DNA of 61,844 bases from an uncultured Wenzhouxiangellaceae bacterium. GTDB taxonomy: Bacteria > Pseudomonadota > Gammaproteobacteria > Xanthomonadales > SZUA-36. A program made the position numbers and the translations under genes. This document shows positions 31,926 to 47,056 of the stretch, piece by piece. Position 1 is the stretch's first letter, and each line of letters starts with the position of its first letter. Location of the stretch: the NCBI GenBank assembly GCA_964650905.1, contig CAZYVH010000003.1, positions 18,230 to 80,073 on the forward strand. The letters are read 5' to 3'. The notes below the pieces were generated by a model that was not told the DNA's origin, ran no database searches, and worked only from the letters and a program-made list of their open reading frames with translations.

Positions 31926-32001
<76 letters not shown>

Positions 32002-32322: not shown

Positions 32323-34308
32323 ATGCCTTTCGCTAAGCGTAAAAGAGCACCTGCCGCAGCCTTGCAAATCTGTCTGGTAATGCTGTCGGTAGTGTCAGCG
32401 GCGATCGTCGCTGGCTGTGCAGGCACCGCGCAGGGTATCGACAGTTCGGTTTATTCCCGTCTCAAAGCCGGGAAAGCGACCAGCCAGACCACGCCCGAGG
32501 CTGCCGCCCTGGTGATCATTCGCTACCCGGCCATGATCCATGATTATGCTGAAAACCTGTATGTCAGTTCTTTTGCGATCAAGGCCATTGGCGGTGAGGT
32601 CACCACCTCGACGGCAAAATCGCAGGCCGCCAGAATTGCACAATCGGTGGTTGAGAAGTCCAGTTATTACGCGATGTCGCTGTACCGTGAATTAAAAGCT
32701 GAGCTGCCCGAAGCTTCTGTGCTGTTATCACCGCATATCATCGCGTGGGATAAGAAACGCCAGTTGTACACACGCCCGATACTTGCAACAGAACAGGTAC
32801 CCAGCGTCCTGACCATCGACTTTAACGTTTATTCCTATCCCGACATCAACAAGATCATGGATTCGCCACCCGTCACGTTTGGCGACCTGGTGACACCGCT
32901 CATCGTTGTGAAAGGCAACCGCTGGATACAGCCAGCCTTAAATGGCCTGTTGATAGCCAGTCCGCCGCTGGCCAGTTCTGCCTGGCGTCAGGCAACCAGG
33001 GACGGTGAACGGCATTTCAATTCACGTCTTGAGGGCAGGGGAGACGATGAGGTTGCTTCACTGGACTTTATCGCTTTTTTGCGTGAGCGTAACAAAAACA
33101 CCCTGCAGATACCCTTCAAAACGGCAATGGCGGGGAGTAGCGGTTCGTTCGCCATCGAACAATACCCCTTGGAAAAAATACAGATGGACGGTGCGGCCAT
33201 TGCAGCCCTGGAAGATGATGGTTCAGTTGATCCATTCGTCAGCGGTTTTGTTAAAGGCGCGAGCAGACGTATCATCGATATGCTCAGTTCGATCGATCAA
33301 GAGCGGGCGACATTTTTTGCCCGTCAGAGGGCCCTGGGCCGTTTTGATCCCGAGCTTGCAAATGTATTTTTTGTGCAGTCCGGGGACGAGAGTGTACGGG
33401 CACGTCTGCAACTTGCCGAGGCCCTCGTGGGTGCCGAGAGGACGTTTCTTGCGGCGCAATCCGACAGTATTTACGAGGGAACCTATGCGGGCAGTTACGG
33501 TTTAAAAATGCGCAAAATTATCGCAGCGGAATACCGCATGCTTGAGCAACGCCGGCACCTGGCACGCAAACAAAATATAACCACGGCGGTCGCGGCCATC
33601 GCCCTGGCCGGTTCGGTATATGGTACTGCCGTGGCATCGACTTCGGCGGGCGCGGCGAGTGTAGCGGCGGTGTCAGGCGCAGCGCTGGGTGGTTCCGTGT
33701 GGGCCATGCACCAGTCGTTTGAGACCAGGACCGAGTCTGAAGAGGTCGGCAAGTATTTCATGGCCCGCATGGCACCCGCTTTTGACCGACAGATGTCTGT
33801 GCAGATGGAATGGCTAGAGTCAAAAGAAGTGATCACGGCAAAGGGCTTCGCCGAATTCAGAAACAAGACCCTGAGTCTGTACCAGTCACGGGTCAGGACC
33901 ATGCGTATCAGTGGTAGCGAACACTGCCGCTTCAAACACCCGGGGTTAAGGCAAACAGGGCGCTGGTATGGGGTGTGTCAACACGGCCTGGCAAGTGGCC
34001 GGGGATACGGATTGATCAGGAACGGGCAGGGCGACAGCGTGGAATACCTTGGTGAGGCCAGAAAAGGGCTGGCATCCGGTACCGGTGGTATGATCATCAG
34101 GAAAGAGGGTCAGTTGGCTGCAAACTATTATGAGGGCTCATTCAAAAATGGCAGGCTCGACGGAACGGTGCGTATCGAAAAACCCGGTTCGCAACCTCAG
34201 TTGCGGCGTTTTAAAGCGGGTGTTGATGCAGGCAGGGGTAATGCAGATCTTTTACAGAGACTGAGCTTTGTCTCAAGCCAGGCAAGTGACCGGTCACTGA
34301 AGCCGTGA
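32323..34308 (+). CDS. Hypothetical lipoprotein with a Gly/Ala-rich hydrophobic segment and C-terminal MORN-like repeats
   Basis: Signal peptide with lipobox IVAGC. A Gly/Ala/Ser-rich hydrophobic stretch is present (ITTAVAAIALAGSVYGTAVASTSAGAASVAAVSGAALGGSVWAM). The C-terminal repeats (YLGEARKGLASGTGGMI, YYEGSFKNGRLDGTVRI) fit the MORN pattern. Confidence 0.5.
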   Translation: MPFAKRKRAPAAALQICLVMLSVVSAAIVAGCAGTAQGIDSSVYSRLKAGKATSQTTPEAAALVIIRYPAMIHDYAENLYVSSFAIKAIGGEVTTSTAKSQAARIAQSVVEKSSYYAMSLYRELKAELPEASVLLSPHIIAWDKKRQLYTRPILATEQVPSVLTIDFNVYSYPDINKIMDSPPVTFGDLVTPLIVVKGNRWIQPALNGLLIASPPLASSAWRQATRDGERHFNSRLEGRGDDEVASLDFIAFLRERNKNTLQIPFKTAMAGSSGSFAIEQYPLEKIQMDGAAIAALEDDGSVDPFVSGFVKGASRRIIDMLSSIDQERATFFARQRALGRFDPELANVFFVQSGDESVRARLQLAEALVGAERTFLAAQSDSIYEGTYAGSYGLKMRKIIAAEYRMLEQRRHLARKQNITTAVAAIALAGSVYGTAVASTSAGAASVAAVSGAALGGSVWAMHQSFETRTESEEVGKYFMARMAPAFDRQMSVQMEWLESKEVITAKGFAEFRNKTLSLYQSRVRTMRISGSEHCRFKHPGLRQTGRWYGVCQHGLASGRGYGLIRNGQGDSVEYLGEARKGLASGTGGMIIRKEGQLAANYYEGSFKNGRLDGTVRIEKPGSQPQLRRFKAGVDAGRGNADLLQRLSFVSSQASDRSLKP

Positions 34309-34315
34309 TTCGTTC

Positions 34316-34566
34316 GCTAACCCGGACATTTCATCAAGGATCCGGGAATTGCGCTGTAGCTGGCAAAACAGTCTGGCCGATCGTTCGAATAAGCATAGCG
34401 GTAGCTATGGTGTGAGAAGGATCGACCGAAATGTGAAGCCAGATGCTGTGCAAAACCGGATAGGACAAACTGTCTTTTTTGAAAAATACTACAAACATGC
34501 ATAATCATTTGTTTTCATGAAAATTTATCATTTTATCGTCCGCCTTGGTGAAATGTCCGGGCTAAC
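34316..34566. repeat. MITE-like element, copy C, with 24-nt imperfect terminal inverted repeats
   Basis: The left end is gctaacccggacatttcatcaagg (34316-34339). The right end is ccttggtgaaatgtccgggctaac (34543-34566). They match as inverted repeats at 21/24 positions by hand. The interior is AT-rich, and the right-end sequence also ends copy A (10321-10340). Confidence 0.5.
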
Positions 34567-35326
34567 TACCATGGTCTTTGTTGCCGGCGTGTTGCTGACG
34601 CCGCTGTTGTGCGCCGGTAGCATCAATTTCGTAACAATCGAGACGCTTCCACCCGGTGAACAATACCGGCAACTCAGTCTGGTGCTGATGGTTGCCGCCG
34701 GGGCAGACCCGGCATTGGTTGACAGCCTGCTGCATGAATCCTCACAAAAAGAAGCGGATCAAGACTCAAGCTTTGACCCCGATGTCTATAAAACACCGCT
34801 CACCCGCATTGTCGACCAGCAAACAATGTTGAGCGGTGCAGCAAGGTTGTTGCGCTTTGCCAATCGCTCCCAGAAAGAGATTCGCGCCAAGCTGAGCGCC
34901 ATCGAAGTTGCAAACCCGGTCCTTATCAGTATGCTGGACGGCCAGGCGGTCAGCGAAGATGCAATCATCATCCGCAATGCAATCGCTGACAGCATCAGTT
35001 ACGCCGGTCTGGAAGCTAAAACACTTGCCCATTTACTGGAGGCTTACAGGACACGCACACTGCGTCTTCGAAACGAAATGGAGTTTGCCAGTTTTAGTGC
35101 GGAACTTGACCGCATCACCGCCGAATCCATCCGCGCCGTCGGTGGTCAGTCGGATGCTTACCAGCGTATGTTTGATGACGAGGTGGTTGCCAAGGGTTTT
35201 AAACGGCAAATCGAGACGGCGGATTATATTTACAAGCGCGATAAGGCGTTTGATAAACACGCCGCCGAGATGACCGAGGAAATCATCAAGAATGTGGTTG
35301 AGTCGCAAAGCGAAGTTAATCACTAA
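34517..35326 (+). CDS. Hypothetical protein (start uncertain: 34517, 34553 or 34571)
   Basis: The ORF is 269 aa and predicted mostly helical. Its 5-prime end lies inside repeat copy C. A hydrophobic N-terminal segment is present (MVFVAGVLLTPLLCAGS). No family was recognised. Confidence 0.4.
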   Translation: MKIYHFIVRLGEMSGLTTMVFVAGVLLTPLLCAGSINFVTIETLPPGEQYRQLSLVLMVAAGADPALVDSLLHESSQKEADQDSSFDPDVYKTPLTRIVDQQTMLSGAARLLRFANRSQKEIRAKLSAIEVANPVLISMLDGQAVSEDAIIIRNAIADSISYAGLEAKTLAHLLEAYRTRTLRLRNEMEFASFSAELDRITAESIRAVGGQSDAYQRMFDDEVVAKGFKRQIETADYIYKRDKAFDKHAAEMTEEIIKNVVESQSEVNH

Positions 35327-35562
35327 GTAGGACAAACATTGATGTCCGCCGGTCGGTGGAATCATCATGCACTGACACAACGGCTTGTGAGGGGGTGCCG
35401 GTGGCGGTGTCCGGGACCGTAATCCGTAGGGAACGGATTCCGAACGCCCATGGATGGCTAGTGTACTGCATCGTACACTAAAGTGTGTCCCGGAGACCGC
35501 TTCCGGTACCCCCGCCGAGCACACTCGCAGGCGTAATCAACGTTGCTGGAATTCACAGTTAG
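35327..35562. repeat. Structured intergenic repeat, copy B (MITE/ERIC-like)
   Basis: It fills the gap between two convergent stops (35324-35326 and 35559-35561). It contains several 7-bp hairpins (aatccgt/acggatt, agtgtac/gtacact). It also contains the 64-nt core shared with copy A (35482-35545) and a terminal 25-mer that is an exact inverted copy of 10149-10173. Confidence 0.5.
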
Positions 35563-36821
35563 CCGTCACCGTCTCCATCGGGCGGCTTGTCGGGTGACCC
35601 AGTGTCGGGTGTATTGCTGGCGGAACTGGCGGGTACACTGACACCCCGGGCATTGACCAGGTCCTTGATCGAAAGCGTATCCTTTGACCTGACCCTAAAC
35701 TCGCTGGAATCCTTTACTGTCTGCTGTTCAGATGACTCATGCTCCCGGGCAGTGGAAGACGAAGCTTGCTGCTCGGATGATTCGCTTTCCTGGGCTGTGG
35801 AAGATGAAACCTGCTGCTCAGATGATTCGCTTTCCTGGGCTGCGGCGGGCGAGGCCTGCTGCTCAGATGATTCGTTTTCCCGGGCTTCGTGTGATGAAGT
35901 CTGCTGGCTGGCTGATTGAGCTTGCTGTGTTGCAGACGATACTGCCTGCTGGTTGGCTGATTGGGCTTGCTGTGCTGCTGAAGATGTTGCCTGTTGGCTG
36001 GTCGATTGGGCAGCTTGTACCTTTGAGGAGGTGGCTTGCGGGTTGTTTGACGGCCTGTTTTGCGTCTCGCCCGGTGCCGCACCAGACGCACCCGCCATTC
36101 GGTTTTTCTGCAGGAACTGAAGCGCGCTCTGGGATGTACCGGCGGTGCTGGGCTCATCGGATTCATGGGCCGATGGCGAATAGCTGTCGTCTGCGTCCTG
36201 CTGCATGTCATTTTGCCCATCCTGTTGTGAGGATTGTTGCGCGACTGTTTGTGACTGCTTGGCGCCTTTTTGTCCAATTTGACCAGACACGGCGTCACCC
36301 GTTGGTGATGCCTGTCCTTTTTCACCAGCTTTTGCAGCCCGATCATTTGCGGCGTTGGCACGGGCGTAGTTTTCCGCTTCCCTTTGGTTGTATTTTTCCA
36401 GCAGTTCATCCCAGGCCGCCGCTTCCTGATTCTGTAAAGGACGATTATTGAGCGCTGCTTCGCTGGGTACGTACGGGTGTTTGATCCTGGCGTCCGAGGG
36501 GACCCACTGGTCACTCTCAAGGATTATCTCCCGCAACTGATTGCGCAGGTGTTTTTGTGACGCCTGGGGCAAGGCTTCAATTTTTTGCGGACCCGTTGGG
36601 GCCTCATAGGCAGCCAAGGGTAGTGTACTTCTTTTGATCCGGTCGTCTTTCAGTTCCATAAAGCGCCGGTAATTATCCTCGCTGATTTCCACTTCCTGGC
36701 CTGTTTTCTGCGTGTCCTCATACGCCGGGTCTTCAGCGTCCTGGGCAAAAACCGGGGTAAAAAGTTCAGACGCAGCAAAAACAAGCAATGTCGTGAATAC
36801 GATTCTTCTCGTCATGCTCAT
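35559..36821 (-). CDS. Secreted or anchored Ser/Glu/Gln-rich low-complexity repeat protein
   Basis: The probable start is ATG 36821 (MSMTRRIVFTTLLVFAASELFTPVFAQD), 4 nt after the kinase stop. The C-terminal half is built from 15-aa repeats (AQESESSEQQxSSST and QQAxSSAxQQAQSAx). It is the last gene of the minus-strand operon. Confidence 0.6.
   Translation of the reverse strand: MSMTRRIVFTTLLVFAASELFTPVFAQDAEDPAYEDTQKTGQEVEISEDNYRRFMELKDDRIKRSTLPLAAYEAPTGPQKIEALPQASQKHLRNQLREIILESDQWVPSDARIKHPYVPSEAALNNRPLQNQEAAAWDELLEKYNQREAENYARANAANDRAAKAGEKGQASPTGDAVSGQIGQKGAKQSQTVAQQSSQQDGQNDMQQDADDSYSPSAHESDEPSTAGTSQSALQFLQKNRMAGASGAAPGETQNRPSNNPQATSSKVQAAQSTSQQATSSAAQQAQSANQQAVSSATQQAQSASQQTSSHEARENESSEQQASPAAAQESESSEQQVSSSTAQESESSEQQASSSTAREHESSEQQTVKDSSEFRVRSKDTLSIKDLVNARGVSVPASSASNTPDTGSPDKPPDGDGDG
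35706..36020 (-). repeat. In-frame 45-nt tandem repeats inside the Ser/Glu/Gln-rich gene
   Basis: Units at 35751-35795, 35796-35840 and 35841-35885 are near-identical. More diverged 45-nt units extend on both sides. They generate long shadow ORFs in other frames. Confidence 0.7.
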
Positions 36822-36825
36822 TAGC

Positions 36826-39249
36826 TTACTCCCTGATCGACCTGACGACACGAAAACCGGTAAAATCATTACGGTCGCCATTTTTCAGGTTAAAACGGGC
36901 CGGTAACCGTATGTCACGTGTTCCGGTCAACCATGAACCGCCACGCGTCATGTGCGAACTGCACAACCCCTGGCCCCAGGCCTTGCCATCTGAAGGCGCG
37001 TCGAGATAGGAGAGGTTCATACAATCAGCCGTCCATTCGGCGACATTACCGATGACATCGTAAAGACCAAAAGCATTGGCCATAAAGGTGCCGACCAGCG
37101 CCGTTCCAACTGCCAAGGTGTCAGCACAGGCGGCGTGTTGCCAGCGGAAGCTGGTCTCACTCCCGGCAATGTTGGCGAAGCGGCACAGACCGGCCGGGGT
37201 TCCGCCCAGCCATTCCCCGGTCTCCCCGGCTCGCGCGAAATATTCCCACTCACTTTCACTCGGAAGACGGTAACTTTGACCGGTTTTATCACTCAGCCAG
37301 CGCACGTACTCACCGGCGTCATTCCAGGAAACCATGATCACCGGGTGTTGGCCTCGACCCCAGCCATTGTCGTCGGGCCGGGTTGTGCAGCCCCCGGCGT
37401 CAACACAGGCGTCCCATTCTTGTAGTGTGACCTCGAAGATAGCGACTGCGAACGGTGCATTGATACTGATCATACGACGGGGTTTTTCCAGACCGAGCGC
37501 CAGCGGGGAGGATTCTGCAGAACCCTGCCAGTAACTGCCACTGGGAACCACGATCATTTGTGGGCACGTGTTGCAGTCACTGAAAGATTTACCCGGTCTT
37601 AATGTCAGCTGGTCGAGATGTTGCAGGGCGGAGCTGACACTAGACCCCCTCGGAAAGGCATCAACATACGCCTGATAAGCAGCCTTTGTGTCCAGCTTTA
37701 GTGCGCTGGCAAAAGCATTTGCGTCATCACGCTGGTCCTTGAGAAGGCGGTGGATGCGTCCGGCTTCCTCGATGTGCTGACCGGCCGGCCAGGCATGGAT
37801 GTAATTATCCAGCGATGCCAGCGTACGCTTGTCAATCGCCGCCTGCCAGGCATCCTGCTCCTGGCGGATTTTTGCCAAACGCTCTCGTTCCTGTTTCGCC
37901 TCTCTCTTTTTGAGTGCATCGATGTGCTGCATGGCCTCGCTCTGGTGCAGTCCATTGGGGAATTGATCGAGGTAATCTTCAAAAGCGGCTACCGTGCCTT
38001 CGGTATTTAATTCCTGCCAGGTCTTATCATCAAGCACCTCCAGTTGAACCCGGGCCTGTGCGACATAGACCGACGCCGGAAAATCCTGCATGAAACGCCG
38101 GTACGACAAGGTTGTGTCGGCCTCCAGCGCGGCATGCCAGCGGCTGGTCTCCTCCACAGCAGGTCTGGCGGTGGCTGACGGAATACTTTCCGTATTCTCG
38201 GGCGTCGGCGACAGCGCAGCACCCGGGGGGCTCTTTTCTGTCAGCAAAAATAGAGCAATAGTGACCATGACCAGAAGCAACACCCCGAGTAACACACGCG
38301 GCAACCATTCCTTGCCTTCGCGCGGATCGCTGGCAATGGATTTGCCACCCGGCACCGAGCGCCGCCAGTCGAGGCTCTTGAATGTTTTCTGCCATTGCCT
38401 GACGTCCATCGGCCTGTCCTGCGGCAGCAGATACAGGCCCTGCCCGATGACAGTGGCAATGCTTGCAAATCGAGTGTCTGTCAACAATTCGCCAGGCGCT
38501 ATCAACGGGTCCGCCTCGCCGGCGTCGAGTGCTTTTTGCCGGGCGCTTGCCGGTGGTGGAATTTTCCCGCTCACGCAGCGGTAGAGGGTGGCTGCCAGAC
38601 CATAAATATCCGTCCACGGACCAATACGCCCATCGACCGCGGATTGCTCCAGTGCTGCGTAACCCTCGCTGCCCCGCGGAAAGCGCTCAGATCGATCGAG
38701 CGGTGAGGCGGCGATACCGAAATCCAGCAGAATGGGGCCGTGCTCGTCGCCCATGTAGATGTTGGCGGGCTTGATGTCCTGGTGGATGATCCCGTGCTCG
38801 TGGATGTAGGTGAGTCCGTCCATCATTGCCAGCATCAGGCTGCTTGTTTGCTTAGGGTCCAGGATGTCCGTGGTTTGCAGGATTTCGCTCAGGGGCTTGC
38901 CGGGGTAATAGGGCATCAGGAAGTAAGCGGTGCCATTGGCTTCAAAATAGCGAAGTATCCTGACGATATTGGGATGCTCCAGTTCAGCCAGCAGGCGGCC
39001 TTCGGTCAGAAAACGTTCAAGACCCTCTTTAAATGACTTCCCGGATGCCGGGTTCCGGGCAGACAGCGTTCCGTCACCGCGCCGGGAAACGTGCTTAGCC
39101 GGCAGGTATTCCTTGAGTGCAAACTGTGTTCCGATCGCAGTATCTGATACCTGGTAGGTGACACCGTTTGCGCCGCTGCCGAGCACGGCATTGACCTGCA
39201 GGTCGCGTATGAATGCCCCGGGCGGCAAGGAGGAAGGTATTGTACTCAC
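36826..39249 (-). CDS. Ser/Thr protein kinase, TM, four helical repeats, FGE-sulfatase-like domain
   Basis: The GTG start forms a GTGA overlap with the upstream stop. Hanks kinase motifs are GSGANG, FALKEY, HQDIKPAN, DFG and a YAALE segment at the position where an APE-type motif is expected. The TM helix is VLLGVLLLVMVTIALFLL. Four xYxxYxxxFPxGxxxxxAxxxL repeats follow. The C-terminal FGE-sulfatase pattern includes WEYFARAG, YDVIGNVAEWT, RGGSW and FRVVRS. Confidence 0.85.
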   Translation of the reverse strand: MSTIPSSLPPGAFIRDLQVNAVLGSGANGVTYQVSDTAIGTQFALKEYLPAKHVSRRGDGTLSARNPASGKSFKEGLERFLTEGRLLAELEHPNIVRILRYFEANGTAYFLMPYYPGKPLSEILQTTDILDPKQTSSLMLAMMDGLTYIHEHGIIHQDIKPANIYMGDEHGPILLDFGIAASPLDRSERFPRGSEGYAALEQSAVDGRIGPWTDIYGLAATLYRCVSGKIPPPASARQKALDAGEADPLIAPGELLTDTRFASIATVIGQGLYLLPQDRPMDVRQWQKTFKSLDWRRSVPGGKSIASDPREGKEWLPRVLLGVLLLVMVTIALFLLTEKSPPGAALSPTPENTESIPSATARPAVEETSRWHAALEADTTLSYRRFMQDFPASVYVAQARVQLEVLDDKTWQELNTEGTVAAFEDYLDQFPNGLHQSEAMQHIDALKKREAKQERERLAKIRQEQDAWQAAIDKRTLASLDNYIHAWPAGQHIEEAGRIHRLLKDQRDDANAFASALKLDTKAAYQAYVDAFPRGSSVSSALQHLDQLTLRPGKSFSDCNTCPQMIVVPSGSYWQGSAESSPLALGLEKPRRMISINAPFAVAIFEVTLQEWDACVDAGGCTTRPDDNGWGRGQHPVIMVSWNDAGEYVRWLSDKTGQSYRLPSESEWEYFARAGETGEWLGGTPAGLCRFANIAGSETSFRWQHAACADTLAVGTALVGTFMANAFGLYDVIGNVAEWTADCMNLSYLDAPSDGKAWGQGLCSSHMTRGGSWLTGTRDIRLPARFNLKNGDRNDFTGFRVVRSIRE

Positions 39250-40724
39250 TCCTCTACCCCTGGTTTCATATGTATCCTCAGCCGAATGAGCACATCCCCC
39301 AGCAGGATTTCATCGTCCGGCGAGACAAACAGGATTTCGCCGGGCAGACAGGGGATCGTGCTGATAAATGTGCCGTTACTGGATCCCAGATCGGTAAGTG
39401 TCAGTGTCCCCGGCCGACCTTGCAAACGCGCGTGCGCACGGCTGATTGCAGCCGACTGCAGCCTGAGACCGGCTTCACCCCTGCCAATAACAACATCGAT
39501 GGGTCCGGCTTCAATACCGCAGTAACGTTGCACCGCTTCTCCGTTGGCCAATATCCCTTCGAGCAGGAGCATACCGGAGTACACGGCTGGCAGATCCTCG
39601 ATGGCGGGTATTTCGGGTTCATCAAATGACGCAGTGGACACACGAGGGTGGGAGATTGCCGGGCTGGTGGCAAGCTCCGTGGTAGCGGGTTCCTCGGTGT
39701 GCGTATGGCCGTCTTGTATCAATGTGGGCGTGCTCACCATCTTAGGTCTGAGCCACCAGATGACGAAGGCCAGTATCGGTATTAAGCCCAACAGCAGCCA
39801 GACGGGGTCCTCATTGTTGCTTCCCGGGGCGGCTTGCCGAGCGGCGCTGCCCACCGGTTTGTGGCTGTCTTGAGTTGGCACCTCCTCAGTTGATCCACCT
39901 TGACTTGACCCTGCGATGGGCCGCTCCGGCAGCGCCTCAACACCAGAATCTGCAGGCCCGCTTTGATCAACCATTACCTTTGCATGTTCAGCTTGCTGGC
40001 TGATTTTTGGGGCGGTAACGGTTTCCTTGAGGTTGCTTTGTTCGGGGCTGCCGCAGATGCTATGCTCATAATCGATGTTCATATCGTCAAGCACACGGGC
40101 GATTTTTTTTGCATCGAGTAGGCCGATTGCAAGCTCGCCTTGCTGGTCATCCATCGTCGTCCCGGGTCTGAACCCCGCCAGGTAACCGCAACGGTCAAAC
40201 AGTGCCCCATTGACGGCGGGTAATGGCGTTTCTTTGGATAGAGGTGTCGATCCGGACCCGTCGCCGCTGGTGAACCGGGCTGGTAACCACAGGGGCGCTG
40301 TGCCCTTTGCAATCTTTTCAGCTGCTGGAAAGGCCGCGAAACGCAGCGTGTCTTCCAGCACGGCACCATTGTCTGCAAGTACGACAGCGGGTCGTTGTAA
40401 ACCTTTGACCATCAGGACCGCCAGACCATCGGTGCTAGAACGACGGATGGTTTTTGCCGGGCGGCCGTTGCGGATGATGTCAGTGCCACCATCGAGGACC
40501 ACGATCTCATCACCCTGCGCGACAAAATCAGCGGGCACCATGACCATGCCATCAGCGGAGATCACCACCCCGGTGGCAGGTTTGACAAAATCGTGCGCTA
40601 CCAGTTTGAGTACCAGTACCACCGATGCGGGCATCTGTGCCATGCACGGCGGGGCCAAAAGCAGGCAGATACAGCACAAAAACACGCCGCAATGGTCCGG
40701 TCTGCGCCAGGGTACAGCGTGCAT
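39246..40724 (-). CDS. Exported trypsin-like (degenerate) domain, TM, cytoplasmic FHA domain protein
   Basis: The signal-like N-terminus is VFLCCICLLLAPPCMAQ. A Trypsin_2-like pattern is present (ATGVVISADGMVMVPADFV, DGLAVLMVKG, AVNGALFDRCGYLAGF). The TM helix is VWLLLGLIPILAFVIWWL. The C-terminal FHA motifs are IGRG..., ISRAHARL and SSNGTFI. Its start overlaps the upstream stop (TGATG). Confidence 0.7.
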   Translation of the reverse strand: MHAVPWRRPDHCGVFLCCICLLLAPPCMAQMPASVVLVLKLVAHDFVKPATGVVISADGMVMVPADFVAQGDEIVVLDGGTDIIRNGRPAKTIRRSSTDGLAVLMVKGLQRPAVVLADNGAVLEDTLRFAAFPAAEKIAKGTAPLWLPARFTSGDGSGSTPLSKETPLPAVNGALFDRCGYLAGFRPGTTMDDQQGELAIGLLDAKKIARVLDDMNIDYEHSICGSPEQSNLKETVTAPKISQQAEHAKVMVDQSGPADSGVEALPERPIAGSSQGGSTEEVPTQDSHKPVGSAARQAAPGSNNEDPVWLLLGLIPILAFVIWWLRPKMVSTPTLIQDGHTHTEEPATTELATSPAISHPRVSTASFDEPEIPAIEDLPAVYSGMLLLEGILANGEAVQRYCGIEAGPIDVVIGRGEAGLRLQSAAISRAHARLQGRPGTLTLTDLGSSNGTFISTIPCLPGEILFVSPDDEILLGDVLIRLRIHMKPGVEE

Positions 40725-41467
40725 CAGGCGGGATAAAGCCTGTTGATCAGGTTGTCGAGACAGTACTGGCCAGAGCGATTGAGGGTCTTTTCTTCCCGGC
40801 CCTGAATCAGGTTCTGTAAAAATACCAGGATGGCCGCCATCACCAACGCCAGCAGTGTCGTACTGAATGCAACACCGAGCCGCTCGGTAACCTGGTAGAG
40901 CATATCCGGGTTGTCCACGTTGGCGCGGTCGCCGGCGTAGTTGAGCGCCATCATGATACCGATGACGGTGCCGATGAAACCGAGTGTTGGCAGCAGCCAG
41001 ATAATGTAACGCACGATGTTGTAGCGCAGGTCCAGTTCGTGCAAAAACAGCTCGAGACTTGAATTGAGCAGCGCGTTGGTCTGGTCAACCGAGCGGCTCA
41101 GGTTGAAGTTGAGTACACACCGCTCGATCAGACGTGGCAGAAAACACGTGGTGCGATACATGCTGCTGCGTACTTTCTGGTATATCGGTGTGATGTCGTC
41201 ACCGGGTCTTAAAACGGTTTCATCGTCGAGTGGCAGGTAACCCCGTTCAAACTGGCTTTCCTCGAGACGCCCGCTACGCCAACGGATCGATAATTCACCC
41301 AGGCCGGCAAAAAAGGTCAGCCACAGGACATTTTGCAGCGTGAAGGGCCAGGAACCTCGATTAATATCCAGCATGATAGTCGCCGCCTGGGGTGGCAGGA
41401 CCCTGGCCAGCAGGGCGATGACCAGCACCCCCGCGAGTAAACTTATCAGCAATGTCAGATAGCGCAT
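40724..41467 (-). CDS. MotA/TolQ/ExbB proton-channel family protein
   Basis: The C-terminal signature is LPTLGFIGTVIGIMMAL...LGVAFSTTLLALVMAAILVF, preceded by an N-terminal TM helix. ATG at 41467 is preferred over the TTG at 41506 in the ORF track. Confidence 0.75.
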   Translation of the reverse strand: MRYLTLLISLLAGVLVIALLARVLPPQAATIMLDINRGSWPFTLQNVLWLTFFAGLGELSIRWRSGRLEESQFERGYLPLDDETVLRPGDDITPIYQKVRSSMYRTTCFLPRLIERCVLNFNLSRSVDQTNALLNSSLELFLHELDLRYNIVRYIIWLLPTLGFIGTVIGIMMALNYAGDRANVDNPDMLYQVTERLGVAFSTTLLALVMAAILVFLQNLIQGREEKTLNRSGQYCLDNLINRLYPA

Positions 41468-41486
41468 GGTGTCATTAATCCGTTTG

Positions 41487-41933
41487 TCAGGGTTGATCTT
41501 CTTCAATTTTCCCGGTCAGGGGGTTTCGTTTTGGGTTGCTCAGACCCGGCCCGGGTTCGGTAAAGCCCGTCATTGAGCGTACGGGGGTATTTCCGCTACG
41601 TAATGAAAAATGTTTTTCACCCAGCCTGAGGTCAGTGTGTTTAGCAAACACCGAAGTCAGGCGTTCCAGTGGTATCTCGACCTCACCCATGCGAATCAGA
41701 TCGCCGGTACACAAGCTGACCCTGCGGACACGGATCCATGCTCCGTTACGCTGCAAAAAAATACCGTTCCTGGAATCAGCGTCCACTACCCAGACACGTC
41801 CGTCCGTGGAGCGTTCAATAGACGCGTGGACACGCGACACGGTCGGGTGATCCAGCACCAGGTCACAGGCGGCGTTCCGGCCACAGCTTTTACTGATCAA
41901 TTCAAATAACTCCTTGTGGTTATCATACCGCAC
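41487..41933 (-). CDS. Stand-alone FHA-domain protein
   Basis: 148 aa with a GTG start. FHA motifs are CGRNAACDLVL, VSRVHASI and SRNGIFL. Confidence 0.8.
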   Translation of the reverse strand: MRYDNHKELFELISKSCGRNAACDLVLDHPTVSRVHASIERSTDGRVWVVDADSRNGIFLQRNGAWIRVRRVSLCTGDLIRMGEVEIPLERLTSVFAKHTDLRLGEKHFSLRSGNTPVRSMTGFTEPGPGLSNPKRNPLTGKIEEDQP

Positions 41934-41969
41934 GATGCCGGCATAAACGCCAATTGATGGCCGCCTGTC

Positions 41970-42908
41970 TCATTGTGCAAGCGCCAGGAAACCACCGGAA
42001 TTACCCCGCGCGAGGTTTTGCATAAACTCGACCGTGCCCTTGTATTTGAAATAATCACCGATGGTCACCGTGTGGATTTCCTTGTGTGAGGTATTGGACA
42101 TCGTGATGTTCTGGGCCAGCGAGCGCGGCGGCAGATTGCCGTTATAGACCGGATTGGGGAGACCATCGCTGAGCAGGATGATAGCTTCCGACGGACCCTT
42201 GAAAGCCACCTGGAAAGCGTCCTTGAGCGACGAGGCACCGGCAAACTGACCCTTCAGCTGGCTGATAAAGTGCATTGCCCCGGTGCGATTCTGGTGGCTC
42301 ATGACCACCAGCGAACCATCGGCTGGCCAACGGTGATAGCTCGGGCCCGAATCCAGTTGCTGAAAACCGAGGATACCAAATTCATAACCAGGCCTGAGTG
42401 AATCCATGGCCCGCGCGACGGTCCGCCAGACCAGTTCATCGTATTGAGCTAAATACTTGTTCATGTCGATCATGAACAGGATGCGGGTTTTGTCGGTTTT
42501 CAGACCGAGAAACCTGAAGGTCACCAGCTTGCTGCCGGTTTTCTTCCGCGTTTCCACTGGTGAAGACGGTGGGGGTGGTGGCTGGTCCTTGTGTGCCTGC
42601 AAACGGGCATGGATGGCCCGGATTTCACTGGAAACAATATCCTGCTCGGCGATGAGCTCCCGCTGCCGGGTGCTCGCCGCCGCAATGGCCTGGCGGGCCT
42701 TACTGATACCGGCCACCGTATCATCCAGCTCGGCCTCGGTTTGATTGGTCTCTGATTCGATATAATCCAAGTGCTTGACCAGTTGGGCCTCCTTTTGGTA
42801 ATCCGGCATCATGATGATCGTGATGATGATGAAAGCACCCATGGCAGAGGCAAACAGATCAATGGCTGAGAGCGAGAACACACCGAAACTGCGCAGCCGT
42901 GTCCTCAT
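41970..42908 (-). CDS. MotB/ExbD-like TM helix, coiled coil, vWA domain protein (degenerate MIDAS)
   Basis: The N-terminal helix SAIDLFASAMGAFIIITIIMMP carries a membrane-edge Asp (codon 42858-42860). A heptad-rich linker and a Pro-rich hinge follow. The vWA strands are ILFMIDMNKYL (DxNxY, 42453-42467), FGILGF, AIILLSDG and IHTVTIG. An ATGA overlap links it to the upstream paralogue. Confidence 0.75.
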   Translation of the reverse strand: MRTRLRSFGVFSLSAIDLFASAMGAFIIITIIMMPDYQKEAQLVKHLDYIESETNQTEAELDDTVAGISKARQAIAAASTRQRELIAEQDIVSSEIRAIHARLQAHKDQPPPPPSSPVETRKKTGSKLVTFRFLGLKTDKTRILFMIDMNKYLAQYDELVWRTVARAMDSLRPGYEFGILGFQQLDSGPSYHRWPADGSLVVMSHQNRTGAMHFISQLKGQFAGASSLKDAFQVAFKGPSEAIILLSDGLPNPVYNGNLPPRSLAQNITMSNTSHKEIHTVTIGDYFKYKGTVEFMQNLARGNSGGFLALAQ

Positions 42909-43891
42909 CCAGAGACACCTACAAAATCACCATTGTTGAGCCGGGCCAGGGTCTGCAGGAAGAGCACCAGATTACGGTTATGGGTGTAGTCGCCGATGGC
43001 GACGGTGTGCAATTCGGTTTGCCTGAACTGGTTCAGACGGGTGATCTCCTGCAGGATATACCCCGGCTGTGTATTGGGCTCACCGTCACTCATCAGGATC
43101 ACGGCGCTGGCGGGGTATTCCAGTGCGGCCTGCAGTGCATAATGGGTCGGGGTTGAACCGACAAAGCGATGCACCAGCGAGCGTGCGAAAACCGATGCCT
43201 GGTAAAGGTTTTCCTTGTTGGCAGTAGCCAGCGTCTTGTTACCGGGAAAAGTCCAGAGGACGGGCTGCGGGTTACCCTGGTAACCGATGATCGCAAACCG
43301 GTTGCTTTCGTCCAGTGGTTTCAGCAATTCCAGGACCGTCTGTATCATCAGGTTCTCGTAACGGGTCATACTGCCCGACATGTCAATAACGATGACAAAA
43401 CTCTTTGCATGGGTCGCCAGACCGAGTATCGAAAATTCCACGCCGTGGGTAATGGCCTTGGGCTGTGGCTCCGGTTTGACGACCTTAAGCGGCTCGGCCA
43501 CTGGTGTGGGCAGGTCCGCCAGTTGCCGTCTGCTGTCAGCCAACTGCTTTTTCAAGCGGGCGATACGTGTCTCGACACCCTGGTTGGATACATTGGCGTC
43601 CAGCAGTTCGCGTTGCAACTGCTCCTTCTCCGCCAGCCGCTCCTCAAGCTGGCCGGATGCAAGGCTGCGTTTTTGCATGACGTCCCGTGTCTTTGCAAAA
43701 GCCTCGTCGGGGTCGGCGTGTTGATAGTAGGGAAACAGCAGCATAACGAGCAGGATAAATGCACCCAGGGCAGAGGCGAACAGGTCCACGGCGGACGTCG
43801 AGAATACAGCAGTGTCTCTGTCAGGTATTTTCACAGGTTTCCGGGAATCAGCCGTTTGGAAGTTGACACCAGGGACGGCGATTATGTTCAA
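42905..43891 (-). CDS. MotB/ExbD-like TM helix, coiled coil, vWA domain protein (intact MIDAS)
   Basis: TTG start with AAGGA 5 nt upstream. The helix is SAVDLFASALGAFILLVMLLFP, with the Asp codon at 43784-43786. The vWA domain has FVIVIDMSGSM (DxSxS, 43370-43384), GSTPTHYAL, VILMSDGEPN and LHTVAIG. Confidence 0.8.
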   Translation of the reverse strand: MNIIAVPGVNFQTADSRKPVKIPDRDTAVFSTSAVDLFASALGAFILLVMLLFPYYQHADPDEAFAKTRDVMQKRSLASGQLEERLAEKEQLQRELLDANVSNQGVETRIARLKKQLADSRRQLADLPTPVAEPLKVVKPEPQPKAITHGVEFSILGLATHAKSFVIVIDMSGSMTRYENLMIQTVLELLKPLDESNRFAIIGYQGNPQPVLWTFPGNKTLATANKENLYQASVFARSLVHRFVGSTPTHYALQAALEYPASAVILMSDGEPNTQPGYILQEITRLNQFRQTELHTVAIGDYTHNRNLVLFLQTLARLNNGDFVGVSG

Positions 43892-43924
43892 TGCGGTCCT
43901 TAGCCAATTTTAAACGAAACCGCA

Positions 43925-46900
43925 ATGAGGTTCAGGATAATCAAACAGGTCTTAATCAATCTACTGCTTTTTGCCATTGTCTTGACGGGCGCAATACAGT
44001 CTCAGTGGGCACTGGCACTGGCACAGCCTGCTGAAGCACCACCCAGCCAGGAGTATTTTGTCCGCCAGCAGGGTGGTGAGGCGCTGCTGATCAGGATCAG
44101 TGCCTTTGAGGCAGAAATCGAATCACGTGTCTATGATCCACAAAAGTCGCTGTTATCAGTGTCCGCCTTACCCGGCAACCGGATTGCTCCGCTATTCCAG
44201 TTTATTGATGCAACCCACAGCCAGCGACAACTGGATATTCAGGTTAGCTCAAAACGCAGTACCGGCAATAGTAAATTTGAGATCGAGTTTACCCGGCTCA
44301 GGGACTGGGACGAAAGAAGTGGTCTGCTGGTGCGTGCCTATCACTTACTCGCTTACGCCATGCAGGCCCAACTGGGGCCGGGTTCAACTGACTGGAGTGT
44401 CAATGTCAGCAGTCTGCTGGGCGCGAGCAAAATTTTTGCGCAGTACGGCATGCGCGAACAACGTTTGTGGTCCACTTACCTGGCTGCCTACCTCGTCTAT
44501 TACCGACTCGGTGATTATCCGTTCGCTGCCAGGCTCAACGACACAGTACTCGAGGAAACCAATGCGCCACACTGGCAGGAAATCAGACTTGCCGCGCTGC
44601 AACTTAAAGCAGATATACTCATCAAACTCAGCGACAGCAATGTCATGCAGGATTCCGGAAAGCGTACAGACCCTGTACAGGCAGCGTTATTCGCTGCGGC
44701 GCAGTTCGCCCAATCCACAGGGTTTGGCTTTGAACAGGCCAGCGCAGTCTACACAAGCGGTCTGGTCTACGCCGGCCAGGGGCTTTTCGCGCAGGCCTCG
44801 GCACAGTACCAGAACGCTCTGAAGCTGGCACAACCTCTCGCAGACGACCTTTTTTTAAAAGAGATCAGGGAAAGTGTGGTTGCCGTCAATGCCAGGCAGG
44901 GCAATGCCCCGGCATCCGGTCAGGTGCTGCAACAGATTGAGACGCAACTGCTGCGTGAAGGCGGTGGCGATGAACTGGCACTCAACCTGTTGCAACAAGG
45001 CGATCTGCTGCTTGGCACCCACCGCTGGGCAGAGGCCATCGAGGTACTCACACAGGCACTTGAACAACAGAACGACAGTTCGATCCGCAGTCGTGCAAAT
45101 TTGGCCCTTGCAACAGCCAGTTATGAAGACGGTGACCCTGATGCAGCTTTGGCGTACCTGGATGCTGCCGGTGTCAGCGACGACCTGCGGCCAGCGAGAA
45201 ATGGCAAACGCGATCTGGACGTGGCTGCGGGGCTGGAAATCAAGGCGGCGATCTATCGTGCCCGGGGCGAGTATGAGCACATGCAAAGCGTACGCCAGGT
45301 GCAGCACGACTGGTTGCCAACGGGCGTGGATCAAGCCCGGTATTTTTATCAGCGGGGTCTGGATGCGCTGGCCAGGGGGGGCGGTAAGCGGGTGCAGGCA
45401 GTGGCTTTTTTCCGAAAAAGCTACCAGGCAAAGGGTTATGCACAGCCACCCGGGTTACGACTGCTCGCACAAATGCAGCTGTGTGTGCTGGGGGCGGAAA
45501 AAGCAGGTCTGTGTACACCCGGCAACGCTTTGCGTGCCTACCAGAAGCTGGTTTCCAACCGTATCCCCCGGCAGGTAGTTGAGGCCCGGTTTCTGCGCGC
45601 CCGTTACCAGGCCAGACACGGACAGAGAAAGGCCGCTATGGCGATTATGGAACAGGCGGTCGACGATATTCATTTTTACCGTCAGATGATGCCCGGCATG
45701 CTGGGAGCCTGGTACTGGCAGCACCGGAATGATCTGTTTACCGCTTACCTTGATCTGGCGAGTACCACTACAACTTCAGCAGGTAGTAACGGGGAACGAG
45801 ATTTCGAATCACTACTGGCGCTGAGTCGGATCAGGTTTGCTGCACGTCCGGTCAGTAGCGAGCGCCTGTCGAGCACTGACCTTGCAGCAGGTGATTCGCT
45901 ACGGCAACGGTTTGCAATGCTCGCAAACAGCACTGCGGGTGAAGAGACCGCAGAGCTGATCACCGGCCTTCAACGGGATGTTGACAGTCTGCAGACAGCC
46001 TTTAATCACACATTCGCTTTTCTAAGCCGCTCGGGTTTAAAGAAAGCCCTGGATGGTCTTGCAAGGAGCGAAGCCGTCTTGACCTACCACCTTACACGAG
46101 ATGAAGCACTGGCCTGGCTGGGAAAAAACGGCCAGGTCCGGCGCTTTGTCATCGCACACCCTGATCGGCTTTTTACAAAGCTGCAACGGGCCCATGACGA
46201 TCTCCCGGCCACTTCGGGCCCGGCATTTGACGTGATGATGCAGGAGATCGGTGAACAACTGCTCAAACCACTGGCCGGCAGCTTGCCTGAAACGATATAT
46301 TTTGTTCCCGAAGGTTTGCTGACAGGTTTTCCCGTAGACGCACTGCGCCTGGGGCAGGAATACCTCATCGAACACCACCGGCTGGTCAATGTGCTGGCAT
46401 TCCCATCTGATCCACGGCCAATAGCCAGCCTGCACACAACCGCACCACAACGTGTTTTCATTGCCGGTTCCCCACAGGACTACTCGGCCTGGGTCGAATC
46501 CCGCCTGGCAACATCCCCGGAAATCCAGGCGGTTGCCGAGCAGTTCATCGGACCGGGTTTGCATATCGTGCAGGGGAGAGCTCTGCTACGTGACGAATTT
46601 GATGACACCCGCCTGCAACGCGCTGAACTGGTGCACCTGTCCATGCCCGCTGTGATGGATTTTGATCAGCGGCAACGCTCCGGACTGATGTTGTCCGAGC
46701 CACGACGCGATGCAGGCCGGGAGATGCTGTCATTGACAGATATCAGCGCGAACCGCCTGCAGGCCAGGCTGGTGTTTCTTAGTGCGAGCCGTATCCAGGG
46801 CGAGATCGACGCGACATTTGCAGGCCAGCCAGCCCTGGTGACGGACTACCTGGCGACCGGTGCGCACGCTATTATTGCCGGTTCCTGGCGACCGGCCAGT

Positions 46901-47056
46901 CAGCTGGCGACAGAACTGGTGACGGGTTTCTACCGCTCACTGGCGGTATCAAACGATATCACAGGTGCAATGACCCAAAGCAAGCGGGACTATTTACGCA
47001 AGTACAACAACGACGGCTCTCGCAGCTGGGCTGCGTACCAGCTTTATATCAGGTAG
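43925..47056 (+). CDS. Exported TPR-repeat protein with a C-terminal CHAT (caspase-like) domain
   Basis: 1043 aa. The N-terminal hydrophobic signal or anchor is LINLLLFAIVLTGAIQSQWALALA. The central helical-repeat region is TPR-like. The C-terminal CHAT pattern includes IYFVPEGLLTGFPVDAL, VFIAGSP, ELVHLSMPA, RLVFLSASRIQG and AIIAGSW. Confidence 0.8.
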   Translation: MRFRIIKQVLINLLLFAIVLTGAIQSQWALALAQPAEAPPSQEYFVRQQGGEALLIRISAFEAEIESRVYDPQKSLLSVSALPGNRIAPLFQFIDATHSQRQLDIQVSSKRSTGNSKFEIEFTRLRDWDERSGLLVRAYHLLAYAMQAQLGPGSTDWSVNVSSLLGASKIFAQYGMREQRLWSTYLAAYLVYYRLGDYPFAARLNDTVLEETNAPHWQEIRLAALQLKADILIKLSDSNVMQDSGKRTDPVQAALFAAAQFAQSTGFGFEQASAVYTSGLVYAGQGLFAQASAQYQNALKLAQPLADDLFLKEIRESVVAVNARQGNAPASGQVLQQIETQLLREGGGDELALNLLQQGDLLLGTHRWAEAIEVLTQALEQQNDSSIRSRANLALATASYEDGDPDAALAYLDAAGVSDDLRPARNGKRDLDVAAGLEIKAAIYRARGEYEHMQSVRQVQHDWLPTGVDQARYFYQRGLDALARGGGKRVQAVAFFRKSYQAKGYAQPPGLRLLAQMQLCVLGAEKAGLCTPGNALRAYQKLVSNRIPRQVVEARFLRARYQARHGQRKAAMAIMEQAVDDIHFYRQMMPGMLGAWYWQHRNDLFTAYLDLASTTTTSAGSNGERDFESLLALSRIRFAARPVSSERLSSTDLAAGDSLRQRFAMLANSTAGEETAELITGLQRDVDSLQTAFNHTFAFLSRSGLKKALDGLARSEAVLTYHLTRDEALAWLGKNGQVRRFVIAHPDRLFTKLQRAHDDLPATSGPAFDVMMQEIGEQLLKPLAGSLPETIYFVPEGLLTGFPVDALRLGQEYLIEHHRLVNVLAFPSDPRPIASLHTTAPQRVFIAGSPQDYSAWVESRLATSPEIQAVAEQFIGPGLHIVQGRALLRDEFDDTRLQRAELVHLSMPAVMDFDQRQRSGLMLSEPRRDAGREMLSLTDISANRLQARLVFLSASRIQGEIDATFAGQPALVTDYLATGAHAIIAGSWRPASQLATELVTGFYRSLAVSNDITGAMTQSKRDYLRKYNNDGSRSWAAYQLYIR

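Follow-up and report, generated by a model that had tools for sequence, protein, structure and literature searches.

The subject of this study is a stretch of 61,844 nucleotides from an uncultured Wenzhouxiangellaceae bacterium (contig CAZYVH010000003.1, positions 18,230 to 80,073; this whole stretch is called the window, and all coordinates refer to it unless a locus is named), and in particular a cluster of ten genes on both strands at positions 32323-47056, delimited by domain calls and synteny. On balance we favour the interpretation that this cluster encodes a proton-driven motor of the TolQ class, in which two paired von Willebrand factor A (vWA) proteins, vWA1 and vWA2, would serve as the B subunits and for which a receptor Ser/Thr kinase, acting via FHA proteins, would provide the gating, probably with expression under envelope stress. 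The evidence comes from the residues conserved in the channel and in the vWA helices, from the constant company of kinase and FHA genes, and from the stability of the cluster in the chromosomes that carry it.

The channel subunit (40724..41467, minus strand), presumably the pentameric A subunit, matches PF01618 (MotA_ExbB, E 1.4e-13). Its start was corrected to the ATG at 41467, which gives a protein of 247 aa identical to a database protein; a search returned 2133 homologs, and the best 120 of these are 76-91% identical to it and 239-255 aa long. The AlphaFold 2 (AF2) model has a predicted local distance difference test score (pLDDT) of 97.3, and in a Foldseek search of the PDB TolQ came first, followed by ExbB and then ZorA (TolQ and ExbB with probability 1.00 and TM scores of 0.5-0.67), whereas the flagellar MotA and PomA structures fit poorly (TM scores of 0.27-0.39). 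Across 55 diverse channel homologs, down to 30% identity, there is little or no variation in the segments WLIPTLGFIGTVxGI and AFxTT. A profile search aligned the motifs PTLGFIGTVxGI and AFxTT with the pore-threonine motifs GLFGT and IAT of the TolQ of A. baumannii, which places the pore threonines at GFIGT167 and AFxT203T204. The channel is thus of the TolQ/ExbB class, with the A-subunit fold and the pore threonines of 5:2 motors.

Two vWA genes on the minus strand stand near the channel gene. vWA1 (42905..43834, 309 aa) matches VWA_3 (E 9.5e-11) and has an intact metal-ion-dependent adhesion site (MIDAS; DMSGS ... SDG), and vWA2 (41970..42908, 312 aa), for which the Pfam scan gave no match, is recognised as its full-length paralog (31% identity, E 5e-38) and has a degenerate MIDAS (DMNKY). 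Both proteins are built in the same way: an N-terminal helix that bears an Asp, a predicted coiled coil of about 65 aa, a Pro-rich linker (poly-Pro in vWA2) and the vWA domain. By motif alignment, the trans-pore helix comprises residues 25-56 of vWA1 in the numbering of a 328-aa open reading frame (ORF), with Asp36 (43724..43819, minus strand), and residues 6-37 of vWA2, with Asp17 (42798..42893, minus strand). In 112 distinct vWA sequences, drawn from loci with channels that share 48-90% identity with that of the window, it is this helix and not the vWA domain that is the most conserved segment; its motif R-x7-SAxDLxAxAxGxF-x8-PxY is nearly invariant and the Asp is present in 99% of the sequences. 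The proton-binding Asp of the inner helix is D32 in MotB, D25 in ExbD and D23 in TolR, and the conserved Asp of the vWA helix is what we take to be the signature of such a helix. The two paralogs have complementary MIDAS states. In the vWA1 class the site is intact (DMSGS and the Asp of SDG) in 33 of 43 sequences; in vWA2 it is degenerate, in the variants DMNKY, DMNSY and DMNRF. The first and last Asp of the site are 100% conserved. One distant vWA homolog was weakly flagged as 'HpsJ' by Pfam; the literature gave nothing of use on this lead, and it was dropped.

The original prediction, made from the sequence of the window alone, had proposed that the channel and the two Asp-helix vWA proteins form a stator-like unit, and the TolQ-class fold, the aligned pore threonines and the near-invariant Asp helix all speak for it, as does the absence of any annotated TolR/ExbD or OmpA-type gene from the surroundings (9-10 kb) in the four loci for which precomputed Pfam annotation exists. 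A precedent for such a motor core exists: an in-silico study (Mol Biol Evol 2025;42:msaf138, PMC12204202), which started from a seed in Idiomarina loihiensis, described a 'second family' of TPH-vWA/TolQ-like motor-driven force transducers. In that family a TolQ homolog is tightly linked, in Proteobacteria, to genes of membrane-tethered vWA proteins, with no TolR or ExbD; the vWA proteins occur mostly as heterologous pairs and have a trans-pore helix with a conserved Asp, which AlphaFold 3 (AF3) models put inside the threonine ring (PMC12204202).

Complex formation, stoichiometry and force transduction are what we infer from these features, as follows. A heterodimer of vWA1 and vWA2 would replace TolR, ExbD or MotB as the two inner (B) subunits of a 5:2-type motor, each of the two proteins putting its N-terminal Asp helix into the channel pentamer, spanning the periplasm by its coiled coil and Pro-rich linker, and ending in a vWA head, one with a working MIDAS metal-ion site and the other without. 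The length of the coiled coil and linker means that the vWA proteins could reach well across the periplasm. Proton flow would turn or pull the stalk and so exert force on a periplasmic or outer-membrane target gripped by the MIDAS. Three further products of the cluster, considered below, are candidates for this ligand: an acidic protein rich in Ser, Glu and Gln (S/E/Q-rich), a 661-aa lipoprotein and a scaffold protein with TPR repeats and a CHAT fold.

The signalling layer consists of one kinase and two FHA proteins, all encoded on the minus strand. The receptor Ser/Thr kinase (36826..39249) matches Pkinase (E 6.3e-31) and FGE-sulfatase (E 2.5e-47), the latter being the fold of the formylglycine-generating enzyme (FGE), and weakly YfiO. 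From the N-terminus it has a cytoplasmic kinase domain, a transmembrane (TM) helix at about 316-340, four TPR-like repeats of the BamD/CpoB kind ('Y..F...FP') and a periplasmic domain of the FGE-sulfatase fold, which among the NCBIfam models is PvdO-like (E 3.4e-52, far below the cutoff). The catalytic set is present (K46, HQD(IKPAN) and DFG) and the kinase is of the non-RD kind. The four repeats, of about 40 aa each ('Y..F...FP......A'), lie at window positions 37600-38200 (kinase residues of about 360-550) and give weak BamD/YfiO profile matches; in a distant homolog (locus L100) the same block is expanded, in a kinase of 1356 aa. The small cytoplasmic FHA protein, FHA148 (41487..41933, 148 aa, FHA 3.9e-16), and the bitopic FHA adaptor (39246..40724, 492 aa, C-terminal FHA 7.2e-10) both keep the canonical R / S-R / N-G residues for phosphopeptide binding.

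The kinase would sense the periplasm by its TPR-like repeats and its non-catalytic FGE/lectin-fold domain, and its signal, presumably phosphorylation of a target that FHA domains bind, would be read by FHA148, which may be translationally coupled to the channel gene and would act as a phospho-dependent coupler of kinase and motor; the bitopic adaptor, which has a dead HtrA-like periplasmic domain, would be the second reader. The original prediction had likewise tied the motor to phosphothreonine (pThr) signalling, and three observations bear this out. First, in 82 of 89 loci (25 of 29 loci of the window type and 57 of 60 others) the gene immediately upstream of the channel gene encodes an FHA protein, and the two genes often overlap. 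Second, a Ser/Thr kinase is encoded in 17 of 19 loci of the window type and 11 of 12 others, 28 of 31 in total, counted only where the locus extends at least 5 kb on both sides. Third, kinase and FHA148 degenerate together. The catalytic residues of the kinase are degenerate in seven loci (L011, L013, L015, L017, L018, L021 and L024) and the kinase domain is absent from two (L022 and L023), and in all nine of them FHA148 has lost its pThr-binding residues; these residues are intact in about 18 of about 20 loci with an intact kinase, the others (L001 and L019) having kept the kinase with a degenerate FHA148. Such co-degeneration ties the kinase functionally to the FHA protein encoded beside the channel, a link that we regard as suggestive. 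In the same loci the channel, the vWA proteins and the FGE-fold part stay conserved, so the motor genes outlive the phospho-switch.

These results also bear on the possibility that the proteins form a signalling assembly that does no mechanical work, the channel and vWA proteins being a receptor that senses a ligand or the proton-motive force (PMF) and reports through FHA and kinase, or else that their genes are neighbours that regulate some target unrelated to them. Most of the cluster does consist of sensor and adaptor domains and dead enzymes, no load such as a TonB-box transporter or an equivalent of Pal has been identified, and the input domains of the kinase are variable. However, no positions of the system are better conserved than the proton-relay residues, namely the pore threonines and the Asp in the helices of both vWA proteins, so ion-coupled conformational work fits better than a passive scaffold. 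Loci with a decayed kinase and FHA148 still keep the motor genes. A purely signalling role is accordingly considered improbable.

The original prediction had assigned periplasmic FGE-like, trypsin-like and CHAT modules to the system. The folds stand; as enzymes the modules do not, because the catalytic His and Ser, the His and Cys, and the FGE cysteines are all missing. The 492-aa adaptor consists of a signal peptide, a periplasmic chymotrypsin-fold domain like that of HtrA and MarP, a TM helix at about 307-325 and the cytoplasmic FHA domain. Pfam gave no match for the N-terminal domain of the window protein; its homologs carry Pfam Trypsin_2, and a profile of the family matches MarP, DegQ, DegP, DegS and HtrA at E values of 8e-25 to 1e-13. 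Where active HtrA-like relatives have TNxHV, DLAxL and GNSGGPL, the clade of the window has VPADFV, GLAVL and AVNGAL, so that by alignment the domain is a predicted pseudo-protease with the catalytic His and Ser replaced throughout the clade. Two loci, L110 (4784-7648) and L111 (4663-7623), have tandem Trypsin_2/TM/FHA pairs in which one copy has GNSGGP and the other AKSFGMP, which looks like a pair of an active and an inactive protease beside the motor.

The exported TPR and CHAT-fold protein (43925..47056, plus strand, 1043 aa, CHAT 5.2e-25 and TPR) has in 27 of 27 orthologs the segment VHL(S/A)MP, with invariant H904 and P908, and the segment LSA(S/T/...), with no Cys. We assign the dyad positions by the HG and SAC consensus, which we take to be that of active CHAT proteases; Pro908 then occupies the place where the catalytic His is expected, and the position of the Cys varies among S, T, K and A. 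By this alignment and consensus the catalytic dyad appears to be absent. A sequence search of the PDB with this protein found nothing, and a profile search found templates for the TPR repeats alone, none for CHAT. The FGE-fold domain of the kinase is highly conserved, and its segment RGGSW(L/F/I/V)TG(T/S)(R/K)(D/E)IRL contains Cys in none of 24 orthologs; the two catalytic cysteines of human and bacterial FGE presumably follow RGGS. The HtrA-like, CHAT and FGE-fold domains are probably better read as binding scaffolds or sensors.

Three further proteins are specific to the clade of the window. The 661-aa lipoprotein (32323..34308, plus strand) is found, in synteny, wherever the flank of a window-type locus is long enough. 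Its features are a conserved lipobox (SGC-AGTA), a hydrophobic hairpin rich in Ala and Gly at about 418-462 and C-terminal beta-hairpin repeats that are MORN-like. Its 703 homologs are all annotated as 'hypothetical' and none has a Pfam domain, and its AF2 model, built with 30 database homologs, has a mean pLDDT of 44.8 and is confident only for the C-terminal beta-repeats at 535-645. On one metagenome contig (L033) two lipoprotein paralogs stand in tandem (14864-16786 and 16876-18843), 54% and 49% identical to the window protein. The 269-aa protein (34517..35326, plus strand), which has an N-terminal membrane anchor and a helical body and no Pfam match, was recognised by synteny, with orthologs of 41-75% identity in 15 other loci and in Marinihelvus fidelis (GCA_008725655.1), a species of the Wenzhouxiangellaceae that is in culture. 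The S/E/Q-rich protein (35559..36821, minus strand) is exported, acidic and largely disordered, and a family search gave no match. From a start at the ATG at 36821 it has a clean signal peptide, MSMTRRIVFTTLLVFAASELFTPVFA-QD; the N-terminal part of about 200 aa is conserved in 25 loci (32-44% identity), and the repeat tail is variable, so that the ORFs of the orthologs range widely, from 298 to 636 aa. In the window the tail contains two arrays of 45-nt (15-aa) Ser/Glu/Gln-rich tandem repeats, found by Tandem Repeats Finder at 35721..36011, one of 3.7-4.1 copies (78-80% matches) and one of 2.5 copies (83% matches).

The seven minus-strand genes and the plus-strand CHAT gene of the original prediction all exist at the coordinates given there. 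The claimed extent, 35559-47056, is right for these genes and too short for the cluster, since two more conserved genes, for the 269-aa protein and the lipoprotein, belong to it. The tight junctions are likewise real: the minus strand reads ATGA at 42905-42908, TGATG at 40722-40726 and GTGA at 39246-39249, and the 4-nt gap at 36822-36825 is GCTA, provided that the S/E/Q-rich protein begins at the ATG at 36821. As to the gene order and domains that had been read from the translations, Pfam agrees for vWA1, FHA148, MotA_ExbB, the FHA domain of the 492-aa protein, Pkinase/FGE-sulfatase and TPR-CHAT, whereas vWA2 and the trypsin-like domain are without a match.

That the gene order recurs in other genomes was found in a survey by tblastn and jackhmmer, in which the metagenome scan ran from a 14-sequence alignment: the order is the same in 25 GTDB species genomes, in M. 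fidelis and in 15 metagenome contigs. About 40 independent contigs carry the cluster, collinear wherever the contig is long enough, in the order CHAT, diverging from vWA1-vWA2-FHA-channel-(pseudo-protease/TM/FHA)-(kinase/TM/FGE)-(S/E/Q-rich), which is in turn opposed to the pair of the 269-aa and lipoprotein genes. This recurrence is more than chance. M. fidelis has the complete ten-gene version, the eight genes followed by the orthologs of 34517-35326 and 32323-34308, and its flanking genes differ from those of the window. Identity to the window proteins is 75-90% for the channel (75-88% in the 25 GTDB genomes), 52-79% for vWA1, 54-79% for vWA2, 55-78% for the lipoprotein, 44-67% for the kinase-FGE protein and 30-55% for the CHAT protein. 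A thiamine pyrophosphate (TPP) enzyme encoded in the flank is 72-74% identical in the three genomes that share this flank; the identity of the channel is at least as high, which indicates for the motor genes a rate of evolution as low as that of housekeeping genes.

The remainder of the window is ordinary chromosome, with a methylmalonyl-CoA pathway, dinB, acnA, hflD, mnmA, clpA and tRNA genes. At its left end (3-6805) there is an operon for methylmalonyl-CoA mutase, both subunits of propionyl-CoA carboxylase and MeaB, which is ordinary metabolism and marks the core chromosome. The genes of tRNA-Gly(GCC) and tRNA-Cys(GCA) at 31926-32119 adjoin the left end of the cluster, where signs of integration were not found. 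A genomic island inserted at these tRNA genes was considered and rejected: the opposite flank, with the TPP enzyme, is common to relatives, the cluster stands elsewhere in M. fidelis with an identical internal order, and the GC content of the window is unremarkable. Spread by plasmids was also rejected, as a homolog of the channel was found in only 1 of 72,556 plasmids. The cluster is a stable chromosomal module and not a mobile island.

With regard to expression, the start of vWA1 has to be considered together with a promoter-like element. The original prediction had the CHAT gene diverge from vWA1 across 33 bp, counted from a TTG at 43891; this has to be revised, the spacer being 90 bp when vWA1 begins at the GTG at 43834. 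In one locus (L004) the TTG-extended region contains stop codons, so the long ORF is not conserved as protein, and a conserved element lies inside the extension; on these grounds the start was moved, and the GTG is most likely the true start. The element, TGAACAT-N17-TCAAC (43862..43890, minus strand), resembles a promoter of the sigmaE (ECF) type. In 21 window-type loci (L001, L003-L009, L011, L012, L014-L016, L019, L021, L025, L027, L030-L032 and L044) it precedes the vWA1 start at a fixed distance of about 30 nt, while the surrounding DNA is not conserved; the 2.27 Mb of locus sequence contain the pattern at just 3 other places. For sigmaE the consensus is GGAACTT and TCAAA with a spacer of 15-19 nt, 16 being preferred (PMC1312014). 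A relaxed sigmaE-like pattern has 3 matches in the window, against 0.32 expected; the two other matches, at 10012-10040 and 56083-56110 (plus strand), lie inside ORFs (a dinB-like one at 8777-10147 and one at 55868-56620) and are probably chance. A generic sigma70 promoter scan gave counts equal to those of shuffled sequences, and terminator-like sites, with 25 against 15.1 in shuffles (standard deviation 3.8), lie mostly within ORFs; neither gave a usable signal. The element hints that the operon is under a sigmaE-type envelope-stress promoter, and such a promoter would point to a role in envelope maintenance or at the surface rather than in immunity.

Beyond the loci of the window type, the core of kinase, FHA, channel and Asp-helix protein is widespread. 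For the channel, scanning all of 1.84 billion representative proteins with HMMER gave matches in 138 clusters (at 50% identity) at E values of at most 1e-30 and in 775 at E values of at most 1e-10, and the named matches include Alphaproteobacteria (Kiloniellales, Inquilinus), SAR86 and Ca. Parabeggiatoa. The commonest distant variant has the order kinase(beta-helix/NosD)-FHA-channel-vWA-FHA-vWA; others have FHA-channel-PP2C-(Trypsin_2/TM/FHA)-vWA-kinase, with Sel1/PEGA or WD40 repeats as the sensors of the kinase. PP2C is found in 23 loci of the wider family, none of which is of the window type. The sensor domain of the kinase is thus swapped among FGE, beta-helix/NosD, Sel1/PEGA, PDZ and WD40 domains, as expected of a receptor kinase. 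The invariant core thus consists of the kinase, an FHA protein, the TolQ-like channel, one or more Asp-helix proteins and a second FHA protein, with exchangeable heads and sensors. On a megaplasmid of Rhizobium leguminosarum (strain BT01, pRlBT01d, 154399-173055; locus L112), the ORF that follows the TolQ-like gene (9760-10497 of the locus) has the Asp helix SVLDLFASALGGF and a coiled coil, but a beta-rich head that is not a vWA domain; the kinase of this locus has a PDZ domain, and next comes a 1610-aa protein with no Pfam match. In locus L111 the product of the kinase gene (11625-13343) has Pfam matches to HTH_23/29/33 and to the DDE_3 transposase, which suggests a transposase insertion or fusion.

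The exchange of sensor domains is also what might be expected of a conflict system. It could be imagined that the cluster is of the Zorya type, its heads and pseudo-enzymes detecting a breach of the envelope or molecules of an invader, kinase and FHA proteins relaying the signal, and the channel acting as a motor-sensor or as a leak that collapses the PMF in abortive infection. When the eight proteins were scanned with PADLOC they gave generic kinase matches and a weak partial match to ZorA (5.5e-06, over about 90 residues), ZorA is also among the structural matches, and Ser/Thr kinase, FHA, vWA, CHAT, trypsin and FGE domains recur in predicted conflict systems, where inactive enzymes have been read as decoys (2020 eLife survey, PMC7159879). 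That survey of vWA/FGS conflict systems mentions neither MotA nor ExbB. PADLOC called no system; an effector (nuclease, NTPase, TIR domain or pore former) was found in none of the variants examined, and the ZorA tail, the peptidoglycan-binding domain of ZorB and ZorC/D are missing. Moreover, the locus is vertically stable, shares a flank with relatives, evolves as slowly as housekeeping genes and is nearly absent from plasmids, and its promoter resembles that of envelope-stress genes. As a defence system the cluster is not recognisable, and we regard such a function as quite unlikely. The domains that had originally been noted as missing are indeed so: no PP2C was found in the whole window, and no MoxR, nuclease or OmpA domain was found by Pfam among the scanned proteins of the cluster and its flanks.

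The co-conserved secreted repeat protein and outer-membrane-type lipoprotein draw attention to a different possibility, namely a machine for surface motility, adhesion or export, similar to Agl-Glt or to GldLM of the type IX secretion system (T9SS), which would move or export, for example, the S/E/Q-rich protein, with the vWA heads as the element that couples to an adhesin. The Agl-Glt machinery is reported to pair a TolQR-type motor with the FHA-containing inner-membrane protein GltG and the vWA adhesin CglB (PMC11761067, PMC9946355). The best NCBIfam match of FHA148 is the FHA part of GltG (1.8e-12), and the FGE-sulfatase fold also occurs in GldK and GldJ of the T9SS (5e-19 and 3.8e-07, far below cutoff). 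However, on all cluster proteins the NCBIfam models gave generic domain matches alone, with scores below, and here far below, the family cutoffs; none of the other approximately 15 Glt or T9SS components is present, the vWA heads would be tethered to the inner membrane and not exposed at the surface, and the more widespread variants have retained nothing but kinase, FHA, channel and vWA, without the clade-specific proteins. A motility or export machine is for these reasons judged unlikely.

The interpretation as a kinase-gated, vWA-armed TolQ-class motor has its own weaknesses. The stoichiometry and the insertion of the helices would follow from motif conservation and from the AF3 models in PMC12204202, with a family that is equated with ours by description. 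The three clade-specific proteins, the 661-aa lipoprotein, the 269-aa protein and the S/E/Q-rich protein, have no recognisable fold or family. The likeness of the promoter to sigmaE promoters amounts to 5 of 7 positions in the -35 element and GTCAA in the -10 element, and the consensus is that of E. coli. The co-degeneration of kinase and FHA148 probably reflects only a few phylogenetic events, and since about 9 of the 29 window-type loci have a degenerate kinase domain or none and yet keep the motor genes, phospho-control would be dispensable in some lineages. Finally, bacterial conflict systems, too, typically draw on this vocabulary of Ser/Thr kinase, FHA, vWA, CHAT, trypsin and FGE domains (PMC7159879).

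What would such a motor mean? To our knowledge the 5:2 proton motors have few known uses, in flagella, Ton, Tol, gliding/T9SS and Zorya. The family described here offers, on the one hand, a motor whose load-bearing arm would be part of the B subunit itself and, on the other hand, a genetically explicit regulatory input, with a receptor kinase, two FHA readers and often PP2C. The lineages in which the kinase has decayed along with one FHA protein can be regarded as natural 'knock-outs', and the complete cluster of the cultured M. fidelis makes the phospho-gating of a proton motor directly testable in a tractable case. It would be an envelope system common in marine sediment Gammaproteobacteria and found also in Alphaproteobacteria, SAR86 and others. 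More tentatively, and with less confidence than in the motor itself, it is conceivable that this motor is the first of the ion-driven 5:2 type to be gated by Ser/Thr phosphorylation of the eukaryotic kind, with a receptor kinase that reads the periplasm, a dedicated FHA protein encoded with the channel as a phospho-dependent clutch and a vWA-headed arm formed by the B subunits, and that it constitutes a third, sigmaE-controlled system of trans-envelope force beside Ton and Tol. The novelty of the central idea is lowered by the in-silico study that anticipated the motor core (PMC12204202).

The original prediction had found no named system to which the cluster could be mapped. This holds for TolQR/ExbBD, the flagellar stators, Zorya and TerY-P, whereas the core does fit the family of PMC12204202. 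With TolQR-TolA and ExbBD-TonB the cluster shares the fold of the A subunit, the pore-threonine motifs, a single-helix partner with an Asp near its cytoplasmic end, an extension that is predicted to span the periplasm, and BamD/CpoB-like TPR repeats (weak YfiO matches), here in the periplasmic part of the kinase. It differs in that there is no TolR/ExbD domain (PF02472) in the cluster or among the annotated neighbours, the B subunits carrying the stalk and vWA head instead, and in that there is no third subunit similar to TolA or TonB, as none of the TM helices of the cluster has the His that the S-H-L-S motif needs. We know of no regulation of Tol or Ton by a Ser/Thr kinase and FHA proteins. 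The MotAB and PomAB stators are marked by a cytoplasmic torque interface of the MotA type and by the OmpA-like peptidoglycan-binding domain of MotB; the channel fits MotA and PomA poorly, as noted above, and the cluster has no OmpA domain. Zorya is similar in having a 5:2-type channel of the MotA/ExbB family outside flagella and Ton/Tol, with weak similarity of profile and structure, but the channel of the window has only 247 aa, without the tail of ZorA, and a peptidoglycan-binding ZorB and ZorC/D/E are missing.

Other known systems resemble the signalling part. In the type VI secretion system (T6SS) of P. aeruginosa, the PpkA-PppA-Fha1 pathway uses a bitopic kinase with a periplasmic vWA sensor; the FHA protein to which this kinase signals licenses an envelope machine. 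The logic that leads from kinase to FHA protein to envelope machine is the same, and PP2C is present in many variants of the motor family; in the window, however, there are no T6SS genes, a TolQ-like motor would be the machine controlled, and the vWA domains are on the motor subunits and not on the kinase. The Agl-Glt machinery of Myxococcus has the same combination of a motor, an FHA inner-membrane protein and a vWA protein, but the overlap is limited to generic domains, the other Glt proteins are absent, and the vWA protein would here be a subunit of the motor itself. In the partnership of ArnA (FHA) and ArnB (vWA), which depends on phosphorylation (PMC6509490), and in the TerY-P triad, vWA proteins co-occur with Ser/Thr kinase, PP2C and FHA proteins; their vWA proteins are cytoplasmic and have neither a proton channel nor an Asp helix, whereas those of the cluster are membrane-anchored with predicted periplasmic heads, and the window is without PP2C.

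The closest precedent is the TPH-vWA/TolQ-like family, every descriptor of which the window matches; the two are equated by description. The claim that the system is undescribed has to be given up for the motor core, for which this family is a precedent, and can be kept for its wiring to kinase, FHA and PP2C proteins: the paper and its supplements mention no FHA domain and no associated kinase, and the paper, which gives the family one paragraph and an AF3 model, has nothing on PP2C, on accessory pseudo-protease, CHAT and FGE-fold proteins, on a promoter or on a function (PMC12204202); full-text literature searches found no other description of the combined motor, kinase and FHA system. As far as this literature goes, the phospho-wiring, the co-degeneration of kinase and FHA148, the pseudo-enzymes, the modular family and the sigmaE-like promoter are the characteristics that set the cluster apart from the motor family already described.

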